From an uncultured bacterium (GTDB lineage Bacteria > Patescibacteriota > Minisyncoccia > UBA6257 > 2-01-FULL-56-20): a stretch of 64,000 nt of DNA. The notes under the pieces are model-generated. The model made no database searches. It was not told where the DNA came from and worked only from the letters and a program-made list of their open reading frames with translations. This document shows positions 20,376 to 22,617 of the stretch, in pieces (positions within the stretch are counted from its first letter, which is position 1; each line of letters begins with the position of its first letter). A program made the position numbers and the translations under genes. The DNA lies in the NCBI GenBank assembly GCA_963844965.1, contig CAWJQC010000007.1:96001-160000 (forward strand). The letters run 5' to 3'.

Positions 20376-21062
20376 ATGTCACAAGAGCAAATTAGGAAAA
20401 AAAATGGAGGCGCGGCAATCAAGGCTTTAGTCTCGGCAGGAGAAGAGATTTTGTCTAATTTGCAGCGAGTTATTGCTGTTGGCGGTTTCGATTATCGCAC
20501 TTTTGGTACGGCCATCGAGAAACACCTTAGCAATATTATTGTCAAAATTTTTAAAGAGAGAGGTTTTATTAGAAATAATCGGGATTACATTGTTGCACCA
20601 CATAAAAATTATTTTCCTGATTTTGAGTTAAAAACTGCGCCGCCCATTGCGATAGAGTTTAAATCCGGCAATAAAAGTCAGAACAGAAAGGGCAAATGGG
20701 TTACCGTTAAAAACAGCGAGAACGATATGGGCACGTTGAACGAGTGGCCCAAAAAGATTAAAAGATTTGGGGGAGAAAATATATACTATGTTTTTGTAAT
20801 CTATAATTTTAATAAAAAAACGAAACAGATCTTGAGTATAGAAATAGCCCCATTTTATAAATTTTTAGGACTTAGCAAGGGAAGCGTTCTTAAATATAGA
20901 GAAAAAGACGGAAATTTGCGGCCAAAAAATTTCGACGCCGAACCGCCGATAAAAAACCTGAGTCAGTTTGAGCAGTTATTTAATAAAACTATAATTTACA
21001 GATCAAAACGAATAATCAAAAAACACAAGCTAATTATTAAAAAAGCATCCTCGGGTTCTTGA
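20376..21062 (+). CDS. putative Type II restriction endonuclease (PD-(D/E)xK candidate), cognate to the convergent methyltransferase
   Basis: YFPDFELK ... IAIEFKSG gives a PD..ExK arrangement. AT-rich. Convergent with the MTase and overlapping its 3' end by 26 nt. Start at 20376 has GGAG-like RBS; the upstream ORF extension runs through hairpin-rich DNA and is implausible. Confidence 0.45.
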   Translation: MSQEQIRKKNGGAAIKALVSAGEEILSNLQRVIAVGGFDYRTFGTAIEKHLSNIIVKIFKERGFIRNNRDYIVAPHKNYFPDFELKTAPPIAIEFKSGNKSQNRKGKWVTVKNSENDMGTLNEWPKKIKRFGGENIYYVFVIYNFNKKTKQILSIEIAPFYKFLGLSKGSVLKYREKDGNLRPKNFDAEPPIKNLSQFEQLFNKTIIYRSKRIIKKHKLIIKKASSGS

Positions 21063-22617
21063 CGTTCACAGGGCTAGCTTTTTTATTAATTTGTTTTCTG
21101 GCAATAGCGAATGCGGGGTTATCTATCGGATAGATTCCTTCATCTTCGGATATCGTTAAATTTCTCAGATATTTTGATGCAACTTCTGGGGTATCGCCAT
21201 TGTATTTATAGCCGTTACTTGATCTATAATTAACTTTTTTGAGCTTGTCCGCAACAATTTTTTTATATTTTGGATCTATGTCAATACCGATATAGTTTCG
21301 GCCGAGTCGCTTTGCGGCCAATGCGGTTGTTCCTGCCCCAACGAAAGGATCTAGTACCACGTCGCCCTCGTCCGTCGTCATCAGAATCAAGCGTTCAAGT
21401 AGCGGCTCCGGAAGTTGGCACGGATGGGCGTCTCTGCGCGCATTATGTCTTATGCGGTGAATATCGGCCCAAACATCGCTTAGAAGTGTTCCGTGCGGGT
21501 GTATCTGACTTTTCTTTCCTCCGTAATCTTTGATCATTTTGCCACAACTCCGGCATTTCTTATGTGGCGCCCTAAGTTCGTGGAATTTAAATCCTTTGGG
21601 AAGTTTTGTATAGAATAGTATTCCGTAGTGTGCGGGTAATAAGGTTTTGCCTAAAGGCGTACTCATTGAATCCCACGCGATCCAGTGTTTAAAGACCGCA
21701 ATCTTATTGAGATGATTAGCATAATAAATTAACCACTTTGGTATATTGTGGACCAAAATAGAGCCCGTTGGTTTAGTTATTCTAACCATCTCGGTTAGCC
21801 ATTGCTCACACCACTTTATATAATCTTCCGCCGCTTTTTTGTCTTTATAGCTGCCGTATTTCTTATTTAGGTTAAATGGAGGGTCCGCGAAGGTCATATC
21901 AATTGAGTCGGCGGGAAGTTTTCTCATTTCCTCAATCGAATCTCCGCATAAAATTTCGTTGAGCGGTATCTTTTTGTATTGCTTATATTCTGTTTTTGTT
22001 TCCGGAAAGGTGACAGTAGAGGGAGTTTCTTCGCTGATAACATCGAGTACTATTCCTTGTATGGAAATATCCCGGCCATTTCGAAAGATTAGAGGCTCCA
22101 TGTTTTTGTTCGCCGGTTGTAAACGGATTCGGCCCCGTTCTTTATAGAATTTTTTAAGCGTTGCTTCGTGATTATCTATAAGTGCCACCACCTTTTGTCC
22201 ATTTTCGGCAACGCCCTGTTGTTTAACCAAGACGAGATCGCCATTGTTTATATTTTCGTCAACCATACTGTTTCCGACCACGCGTAGAGCGAAGAATTCT
22301 CCGGAGCGGGGAAGTTTGCTTTGCGGAACGGCAATGGTTTCTTTTTCCTCAACAGCTTCAATCGGCTGGCCGGCAGCTATGATGCCTAACAGGGGGATGC
22401 TAACCATTTTTTCCGATTCAGAAATTTGAATGCCGCGTCGCTTGTTCTCTTCTATTCGCAGGTGGCCGCCTTCCTGGAGCTTCTGAAGGTGTTCATGAAT
22501 GGTTCCGACTGCTCGCTTAAAATGTTTAGCTGTCTCCGGGATAGAAGGAGAGTAGCCATGTTTTTTTGAGTACGTTTTAAAAAAATCCAGAACCTCCTTT
22601 TGTTTTTTAGTGATCAT
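21037..22617 (-). CDS. LexA repressor (HTH + S24 peptidase) fused in frame to a beta-class N6A/N4C DNA methyltransferase
   Basis: Residues 1-205 align along full-length LexA: ITKKQKEVLDFF, HTH, Ala-Gly site in IPLLGIIAAGQP, nucleophile in VVGNSMVD, Lys in ATLKKF, C-terminal IQGIVLDVI. After a linker comes an MTase with motif IV MTFADPPFNL and motif I-II VVLDPFVGAGTTALAAKRLGRNYIGIDID. No stop or internal RBS between the two parts. Confidence 0.8.
   Translation of the reverse strand: MITKKQKEVLDFFKTYSKKHGYSPSIPETAKHFKRAVGTIHEHLQKLQEGGHLRIEENKRRGIQISESEKMVSIPLLGIIAAGQPIEAVEEKETIAVPQSKLPRSGEFFALRVVGNSMVDENINNGDLVLVKQQGVAENGQKVVALIDNHEATLKKFYKERGRIRLQPANKNMEPLIFRNGRDISIQGIVLDVISEETPSTVTFPETKTEYKQYKKIPLNEILCGDSIEEMRKLPADSIDMTFADPPFNLNKKYGSYKDKKAAEDYIKWCEQWLTEMVRITKPTGSILVHNIPKWLIYYANHLNKIAVFKHWIAWDSMSTPLGKTLLPAHYGILFYTKLPKGFKFHELRAPHKKCRSCGKMIKDYGGKKSQIHPHGTLLSDVWADIHRIRHNARRDAHPCQLPEPLLERLILMTTDEGDVVLDPFVGAGTTALAAKRLGRNYIGIDIDPKYKKIVADKLKKVNYRSSNGYKYNGDTPEVASKYLRNLTISEDEGIYPIDNPAFAIARKQINKKASPVNVKNPRMLF

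Follow-up and report, generated by a model that had tools for sequence, protein, structure and literature searches.

Restriction-modification (R-M) systems have to sustain the protection of their host while they stay lethal to invaders, and little is understood of how those of Type II deal with damage to their DNA and the synthesis that repairs it. Several described systems offer parallels to the locus presented here, a compact cassette in a 64,000-nucleotide stretch (hereafter the window) of a 332-kb contig (CAWJQC010000007.1) from an uncultured bacterium of the Patescibacteria, in which a DNA methyltransferase (M) is fused to a complete N-terminal LexA repressor and is encoded convergently with a candidate restriction endonuclease (R). 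The closest functional precedent is the SsoII group of methyltransferases (M.SsoII, M.Ecl18kI, M.EcoRII, and M.MspI), in which an N-terminal helix-turn-helix (HTH) domain represses the enzyme's own gene. Like these, the fusion protein of the window carries a DNA-binding domain at the N terminus of a Type II methyltransferase and has a candidate operator in its own promoter. Unlike them, it possesses a whole LexA head, with a predicted self-cleaving S24 domain and a candidate operator of the direct-repeat type; further, M and R are convergent rather than divergent, so that the head cannot act on R via a shared intergenic region, and the SsoII logic, by which a single site lowers M and raises R, is not found in the cassette. 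The SsoII-type enzymes are also exclusively C5 methyltransferases, whereas the LexA-headed class described below includes N6_N4, D12, gamma-class, and C5 versions.

A second parallel is LexA itself (TIGR00498; PDB 1jhh, 3jso, and 3k2z): the head has the same two domains in the same order, passes every sequence-level test, and is preceded by a candidate autoregulated promoter with a direct-repeat box resembling GTTC-N7-GTTC, the LexA box of the Alphaproteobacteria (PMC8565304). It differs from LexA in its C-terminal extension, a DNA methyltransferase of about 330 aa, in being mobile together with an endonuclease, and in having no SOS regulon linked to it within the 64-kb window. The C-protein systems (PvuII, BamHI, and Esp1396I) likewise employ a dedicated transcription factor to time or limit a mobile R-M pair, but no C-protein homologue was found in the window; the regulator is instead fused to M, would act on M, and has a predicted proteolytic input. 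In the case of Type I systems, SOS-linked restriction alleviation involves the degradation of HsdR by ClpXP after DNA damage. The outcome that we propose below is alike, namely, a shift from restriction to protection after damage by which unmodified repair products are spared, but the route would be the de-repression of M via autocleavage in a Type II system rather than the proteolysis of an endonuclease subunit; we know of no general alleviation mechanism for Type II systems. Finally, damage-responsive regulators such as the S24 repressors CI (of phages) and SetR, CapH/CapP, and the WYL proteins BrxR/CapW also place a defense or mobile module under a repressor that damage inactivates. These, however, are separate proteins, whereas here the sensor, the DNA-binding domain, and the effector enzyme lie in one polypeptide; in the Marinitoga phage MPV1, a CI-like S24 repressor gene is found directly upstream of a methyltransferase gene. 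The locus would be a new combination of known kinds of component, an autoregulated methyltransferase and a LexA-type switch, and not something categorically new. If our interpretation is correct, a canonical DNA-damage sensor has been wired straight into a protective enzyme. The lineages concerned are reported largely to lack CRISPR and to depend on restriction.

A complete LexA head on a methyltransferase with a linked candidate endonuclease

A preliminary description of the window had noted a 526-aa open reading frame (ORF) running without a stop from a full-length LexA into a methyltransferase, and profile searches bear this out. Pfam recovers LexA_DNA_bind (residues 2-62), Peptidase_S24 (75-190), and N6_N4_Mtase (239-455), and the NCBIfam equivalog model for lexA (TIGR00498) matches residues 2-194 with 171.5 bits against a cutoff of 110.95. 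Among PDB sequences, Thermotoga LexA (3k2z, E 4e-33) matches the head best, aligning with it along nearly the full length, and an AlphaFold2 (AF2) model gives the winged HTH its three helices and wing with confidence values (pLDDT) of 85-89. The motifs quoted in that description (IIAAGQP, GNSM, TLKKF, FADPPF, and VGAGTT) lie where it had placed them. The predicted scissile bond Ala82-Gly83, nucleophile Ser117, and general base Lys155, which are spaced as in E. coli LexA, are invariant in all 40 aligned family members, and the same site and residues are invariant in 44 of 44 diverse LexA-headed proteins; these two sets span several methyltransferase classes, with overall identity down to 24%. 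Within the head, residues 125-200 mostly show 80-96% identity to the window's protein in most of the fusion clusters compared, with lower values toward the C-terminal end and in two loci (L003 and L005; L numbers denote related loci). The protein is a methyltransferase with a complete LexA head, the cleavage residues of which are under purifying selection.

The methyltransferase part is the best-conserved region in the alignment of 40 fusion proteins, with DPPF and FxGxG invariant; it matches the PADLOC profile MTase_II (E 1.7e-73) and has MboIIA, RsrI, and CcrM as its PDB relatives. It ends in a tail, ASKYLRNLTISEDEGIYPIDNP, that is confined to the LexA-fused family with the EcoRV-like partner and is missing from unfused relatives of the methyltransferase core. 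In the full-length AF2 model, pLDDT falls below 50 from residue 197 on, and the model was set aside for the methyltransferase part and the packing of the domains.

Could the fusion be an assembly chimera, or two genes whose separating stop or frameshift was overlooked? An unfused order (LexA-like gene, TAA stop, methyltransferase) does exist in L025, an in-frame stop lies inside the S24 domain of L016, and some NCBI gene calls give the methyltransferase part alone. Nevertheless, the three-domain architecture recurs at 63-80% identity in more than 100 clusters (clustering at 90% identity) drawn from independent NCBI, JGI, ENA, and Logan assemblies, all keeping the frame at the junction, as do 86 complete fusion ORFs (74 unique loci), obtained with a range of assemblers from numerous samples, in which the linker varies in length. 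An identical (100%) protein is on record from NCBI, ENA, and Logan assemblies. Some cluster members bear the NCBI name "transcriptional repressor LexA," with the labels Candidatus Tagabacteria or Patescibacteria group bacterium. An artefact thus retains hardly any probability and, on these comparisons, can be considered effectively refuted already. Every in silico refutation test that was run left the preliminary reading standing, and to that extent it is supported.

The convergent gene, which had been proposed to overlap the 3' end of M by 26 nt, does so at 21037-21062; shorter overlaps of the convergent M and R genes (4-18 nt) are seen in L001, L003, and L005. Its PD..ExK arrangement (YFPDFELK...IAIEFKSG) is real, D82, E94, and K96 being invariant in 39 homologues, and the protein possesses a type II restriction-endonuclease fold of the EcoRV branch. 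It is like the blunt cutters of that branch (EcoRV, SwaI, NlaIV, and HincII) in fold only, its sequence identity to them being just 13-18%. No family membership was recovered for it in Pfam, NCBIfam, PADLOC, or the PDB sequences, and its 276 homologous clusters are all annotated as hypothetical or are unnamed. Its linkage to M is strict: among the first 85 loci, R lies convergently and directly 3' of the methyltransferase gene in 26 of 26 LexA-fused loci, although these M-R pairs sit in quite different surroundings, and among 165 loci it accompanies 27 of 27 complete fusions of the window's methyltransferase type. Because it is always linked to the fused methyltransferase type, the partner is the candidate for the cognate endonuclease, as had been suggested.

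Outside Patescibacteria, the methyltransferase core is found at 63-70% identity in Chloroflexota, Poribacteria, Planctomycetes, and archaea. These versions are without the LexA head, the C-terminal tail, and the EcoRV-like partner; they usually lie 3' of a gene for a DpnII-like endonuclease on the same strand. The L025 locus (4001-6211) is a divergent version with three genes: one for a LexA-like protein of 203 aa (35% identity), closed by a TAA stop, followed by one each for the methyltransferase (71%) and the partner endonuclease (49%). It represents either an ancestor that predates the fusion or a derivative in which the fusion has been split. In L026, the start of R (near locus position 6248) abuts a tRNA gene that is followed by a duplicated, att-like tRNA 3' end, and in L001 (near 8219), R is preceded by two tRNA 3' ends. 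These two loci hint at tRNA-targeted integration of the cassette.

A portable head on unrelated methyltransferases

The fusion is no isolated oddity but belongs to a large modular class in Patescibacteria. A search of metagenome contigs with the LexA part alone recovered 484 relatives, of which the closest 80 (63-83% identity) were kept. Nearly all of these are in-frame LexA-methyltransferase fusions of 450-520 aa, the methyltransferase modules of which share a mere 24-32% identity with that of the window. Their C-terminal parts cluster into at least seven types, most with their own convergent downstream gene; the recognizable downstream endonucleases are RE_TaqI (3e-38), RE_BsaWI (1e-10), and an HNH/Endonuclease VII protein. 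Likewise, in a representative library of 1.84 billion proteins (50% identity), 315 proteins match the head below 1e-30, and the closest 45 or so are mostly 350-890 aa in length with LexA at the N terminus. All 44 long representatives carry LexA_DNA_bind and Peptidase_S24, the remainder of each being a methyltransferase domain: N6_N4_Mtase (29), Eco57I (7), N6_Mtase (5), D12 (4), MmeI-type (4), or C5 DNA_methylase (2). The design is common and draws on no fewer than four kinds of methyltransferase domain as well as on several families of endonuclease. No fusion covering at least 80% of the window's protein was found in 72,556 plasmid and 50,697 phage records; IMG/VR yielded one close case. A match from a Geobacillus plasmid that, like the PADLOC profile PDLC03238, seemed to reach into S24 was rejected, as it is a BamHI-type methyltransferase without S24 and aligns only weakly in its N-terminal part. 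The fusion proteins sit in public databases under generic names, and no LexA-methyltransferase fusion is described in the full-text literature covered, which did not include a 2017 study of the Patescibacteria SOS network.

The mobility of the head can be seen directly in pairwise comparisons. Up to residue 200, the window's protein shares 60-92% identity with that of L087, a BsaWI-type system, and thereafter about 28%; at the DNA level, homology (77.5%) begins some 57 nt before the start codon and stops at around codon 194. In its HTH, the window's protein resembles L087 more closely than it does the other members of its methyltransferase family. In L128/L151, L142/L156, and L128/L156, heads that are about 90% identical in DNA precede methyltransferases of unrelated DNA, and the upstream flanks are nonhomologous. 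As near-identical heads are joined to methyltransferases that are unrelated, and in contexts that are likewise unrelated, the head qualifies as a portable module, which argues that it is a dedicated regulator of mobile restriction cassettes and not a resident SOS repressor.

The opposite view would hold that the head is the genome's own SOS repressor, to which R-M modules have become fused at the 3' side, the fusion running the cellular SOS regulon while the cassette gains an addiction-like stability. The head does score as a true LexA equivalog, no second LexA was detected within the 64-kb window, the same promoter stands ahead of two unfused LexA genes, and a passage of one report names Patescibacteria among the clades whose LexA recognizes a direct repeat (PMC7739468). 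However, at third codon positions the G+C content (GC3) of the head is 0.44 against 0.61-0.68 in the flanking genes, marking it as foreign like the rest of the cassette; the head travels between nonhomologous contexts as described above; and endonuclease genes adjoin even those LexA genes that are not fused. Further, the full operator (see below) occurs nowhere else in the window, which covers 64 kb of the 332-kb contig; a shorter core recurs only inside a neighboring RhuM/Doc gene, and a scan of 74 unique loci for second copies of their own operators gave two extra sites only. We therefore regard a host SOS repressor with a passenger as very improbable. The G+C of the head, slightly higher than that of the rest of the cassette, had prompted its consideration as a resident host lexA, and this candidate was rejected on its GC3 and the nonhomologous flanks.

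Two loci with unfused LexA genes extend the picture. In L099, such a gene is followed after 6 nt by a DpnI-family endonuclease gene in one operon, and in L130, one lies beside a convergent gene for an NgoFVII-type endonuclease. Because unfused LexA genes adjoin endonucleases in these cases, the LexA head would seem to be generally used to bring restriction genes under LexA-type control. A sub-lineage of the class has lost the S24 domain; what it retains is the HTH, together with a direct-repeat operator and the partner gene, and with HTH and methyltransferase only, its protein has essentially the SsoII architecture. As this lineage keeps all three, autoregulation is seemingly the core role of the head, with cleavage as an added input.

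That same sub-lineage could be read to mean that the head is a plain autorepressor, a dimeric DNA-binding module in which S24 serves dimerization only and is not cleaved in vivo, and such a reading would also sit well with the lack of a visible recA or other SOS gene in the 64-kb window. Mere dimerization, however, would not keep a scissile bond, whereas Ala-Gly, Ser, and Lys are invariant across both the 40 and the 44 sequences and several methyltransferase classes, the C-terminal half of S24 is the best-conserved part of the head (mostly 80-96% between clusters), and the TIGR00498 score exceeds the equivalog cutoff. We therefore regard an uncleaved autorepressor as rather unlikely.

Several related cassettes additionally possess an HTH_3 controller gene upstream of R (L010, L014, L016, L092, L109, and L127). 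These controllers (at 4464-4763 in L092, 5214-5471 in L109, and 5109-5369 in L127) are much alike, with the core KTQSYISKIESGQRRIDVVQLKEFAKIYKK, although the methyltransferase and endonuclease modules of their cassettes are unrelated; they may constitute a second portable regulatory module.

Candidate operator and proposed damage-inducible circuit

Upstream of M, the order is TGTGGATAAC-TTTCGG-TTTTC-TTTCGG-GTCGG-TGATATAAT, followed by 6 nt and the ATG, and the M mRNA is probably leaderless or near-leaderless. TATAAT is kept at the -10 place in related loci, and a direct repeat with an 11-bp period stands between the -35-like hexamer and TATAAT in most unique promoters across all seven fusion clusters, the same layout being found ahead of two unfused LexA genes. 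In the window, the 17-nt pattern TTTCGG-N5-TTTCGG has a single full match. The half-sites co-vary with the recognition helix of the head: the helix T[IV]H[EQ]H is paired with TTCGG in 22 of 22 cases and TAHFH with TTCTA or TTCGA in 30 of 30 (Fisher p 4e-15 for the 22/0/0/30 table, a value inflated by shared ancestry), and other helix variants go with other half-sites (GTTAGTA and ATCGGG, and TTTAGGT in the S24-less variants). Such a rule, with E or Q for TTCGG and F for TTCTA, would suit swaps of specificity. On account of its position in the promoter and this co-variation, we infer that the repeat at 22640-22657 is the operator of the head and that the gene is autorepressed, which adds support to the autorepressor idea already present in the preliminary description. 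No operator-like site was found near the R or C promoters of the related loci.

The shorter core CTTTC-N6-CTTTC has a second exact match in the window at 20045-20060 (-), CTTTCGGACTGCTTTC, within the 3' end of the RhuM/Doc gene, some 315 nt ahead of the first codon of R; this could be either a chance occurrence or a distal site for the LexA head. The region directly upstream of R has a promoter-like element without the LexA direct repeat, and elements of the GTGGGAGAAT type are likewise present before R in L013, L017, L005, and L006. A 30-nt direct repeat, CTGGAAAAATTCGCGAAAAAGTGGGA[C/G]AAT, is present in two copies (97% identical) at 19101-19130, before RhuM/Doc, and at 20340-20369, before R; these copies may represent a shared promoter or regulator or may delimit an inserted RhuM/Doc segment.

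At the 5' edge of the conserved module lies TGTGGATAAC, which is exact in 50 of 71 unique promoters, has one mismatch in 16 more, and may occur in either orientation. Its sequence is constant whatever the helix. Its occurrence is specific to the head promoters, which hold 52 copies, whereas 7 lie outside them in 465 kb (6.7 expected). By the same count, TGTGGATAA was dismissed as a general promoter element; the other exact copies of TGTGGATAA(C) in the window, at 9692-9700 (+) and 14860-14868 (-), are both apparently intergenic. Being identical to the consensus DnaA box, TGTGGATAAC may provide a second, replication-linked input.

We consider it fairly likely that the fusion is an SsoII-like self-repressed methyltransferase that LexA autocleavage has made SOS inducible, with damage raising protection. 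The head, dimerized via S24, would bind CTTTCGG-N4-CTTTCGG over its own promoter, and the methyltransferase would thereby repress its own synthesis. RecA filaments, which would form on damaged DNA or on foreign DNA in replication (for instance, upon self-restriction where methylation is incomplete, during repair synthesis, or as a phage replicates), would stimulate cleavage at Ala82-Gly83. Cleavage would free the DNA-binding domain from the S24-methyltransferase body and de-repress the promoter; the supply of methyltransferase would rise, as, probably, would convergent transcription into the overlapping R gene. With the endonuclease gene under its own, presumably weak promoter lacking this operator, the R:M balance would move to protection, making the circuit a Type II counterpart of SOS-linked restriction alleviation. 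Of this circuit, the comparisons directly show the position of the candidate operator and its co-variation with the helix; DNA binding, the RecA dependence of cleavage, what becomes of the cleaved methyltransferase and whether it is active, and the direction of the physiological effect are inferred.

The same components could, in principle, form a suicide switch of the abortive-infection kind, as the preliminary description had also proposed, in which cleavage disables the methyltransferase, the stable endonuclease cuts newly made unmethylated DNA, and the cell dies. Such a switch would draw on the new N terminus that cleavage leaves on the S24-methyltransferase fragment, on the lack of a LexA operator at the endonuclease promoter, owing to which R would persist, and on the position of the cassette next to a candidate defense gene (RhuM/Doc; PDC-S23, 1.7e-101). 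In E. coli, the fragments of LexA are degraded by ClpXP and Lon after cleavage. Cleavage would, however, also de-repress the promoter and resupply the full-length protein, the long variable linker makes the methyltransferase domain look independent of the head, and unfused relatives of the methyltransferase core work in ordinary R-M operons. We hence deem a suicide switch unlikely, and the protective loop is favored over it because the operator is at M only, with none before the endonuclease gene.

Several points weigh against the protective circuit. In L099, the LexA-controlled gene is the endonuclease, so that more protection cannot be the general outcome; this operon suggests that the general meaning of the module is "damage inducible" rather than "protective." By analogy with E. 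coli LexA, the S24-methyltransferase fragment could be degraded likewise, which could reverse the net effect. The existence of S24-less variants indicates that cleavage is dispensable for the R-M function. Signature searches for RecA, UvrA, and other such proteins matched nothing in the 64-kb window, which has no recA gene, and the AF2 model of the full protein, built on the 40-sequence alignment, is confident for the head only. Because head and promoter move as one module, few independent events lie behind the helix-operator association. Lastly, the model does not account for the conserved TGTGGATAAC beside the operator.

More broadly, and only tentatively, we suggest that these loci represent a new regulatory class of Type II systems, in which a portable promoter-operator-LexA module has been placed on unrelated methyltransferases, each with an endonuclease of its own, and RecA-stimulated autocleavage tunes R:M during DNA damage, and which would provide the first built-in alleviation (or suicide) circuit. 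The modular head could also act as a compact damage-inducible switch.

Composition and surroundings of the cassette

The coordinates of the features are collected in Table 1. The G+C content is 35.5% in the R gene, 42% in the methyltransferase part, and 45% in the LexA part, against 49% for the whole window, and GC3 within the cassette is 0.36-0.44. The block of low G+C that had been described for 19.1-22.6 kb is firm for 20.4-22.6 kb; the RhuM/Doc gene, with a G+C of 46% and a GC3 of 0.50, is only slightly low. The whole cassette, including the head, is compositionally foreign and is best explained as a two-gene Type II R-M unit that was acquired horizontally.

Table 1. Features of the LexA-methyltransferase/endonuclease cassette (positions in the window)
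Feature	Position	Strand	Basis or remark
LexA-methyltransferase fusion gene (526 aa)	21037..22617	-	Stop-free ORF, Pfam, TIGR00498
LexA winged HTH, residues 2-62, recognition helix GTIHEHLQKL	22432..22614	-	PF01726, E 3e-10
Peptidase S24 domain (LexA C-terminal), residues 75-190	22048..22395	-	PF00717, E 4e-28
Ala82-Gly83, predicted self-cleavage bond (IIAAGQP)	22369..22374	-	Invariant, codons verified
Ser117, predicted S24 nucleophile (GNSM)	22267..22269	-	Invariant, codons verified
Lys155, predicted general base (TLKKF)	22153..22155	-	Invariant, codons verified
Variable linker of residues 195-215 (recombination breakpoint between the modules)	21973..22035	-	Unconserved among 40 aligned
Beta-class N6_N4 DNA methyltransferase domain, motif IV FADPPF, motif I FVGAGTT	21253..21903	-	PF01555, E 2e-51
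Family-specific C-terminal tail, residues 470-526 (57 aa), ASKYLRNLTISEDEGIYPIDNP	21040..21210	-	Conserved in fused family
Restriction endonuclease candidate gene R (228 aa), EcoRV-branch PD-(D/E)XK fold	20376..21062	+	
Predicted catalytic motif of R, D82 ... E94-x-K96, FPDFELKTAPPIAIEFK	20619..20663	+	Invariant in 39 homologues, translation verified
26-nt overlap, 3' ends of convergent M and R genes	21037..21062		ORF coordinates
Candidate LexA operator, direct repeat CTTTCGG-N4-CTTTCGG, 11-bp period	22640..22657	-	Overlaps -35 position and spacer
Extended -10 element TGATATAAT, six bases before ATG	22624..22632	-	Read from sequence; putative promoter
TGTGGATAAC, identical to consensus DnaA box TTATCCACA	22657..22666	-	5' edge of conserved module
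Promoter-like element upstream of R, AAAAAGTGGGAGAAT	20340..20369	+	No LexA direct repeat

An Rfam scan of 17-24 kb returned zero RNA families, and scans with terminator and promoter consensus sequences gave chance-level counts and missed the M promoter; no terminator is claimed. Next to R, the RhuM + Fic/Doc protein (19142-20107, +) matches the PADLOC candidate defense family PDC-S23 (E 1.7e-101), and further away lies a DUF559/MTES_1575 endonuclease-like gene (16674-17420). Together with the cassette, these make the region of 16.6-22.7 kb look like a small defense island. Between 17571 and 18367, a perfect 16-bp palindrome, GTTAACAATTGTTAAC, is present in six copies with spacings of 325, 118, 129, 103, and 84 nt, which flank and trail a small HTH_17 (excisionase/MerR-like) gene at 17644-17886 (-). 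In appearance, they recall the iterons, operators, or parS-type arrays of mobile elements. Elsewhere in the window, a second, unrelated N6_N4 DNA methyltransferase gene (6776-7795, +; Pfam 1e-43) is preceded by a gene for an SDH/ClpP-like serine protease (5002-6027, +), and the segment from 5002 to 7795 may be a further restriction or defense locus.

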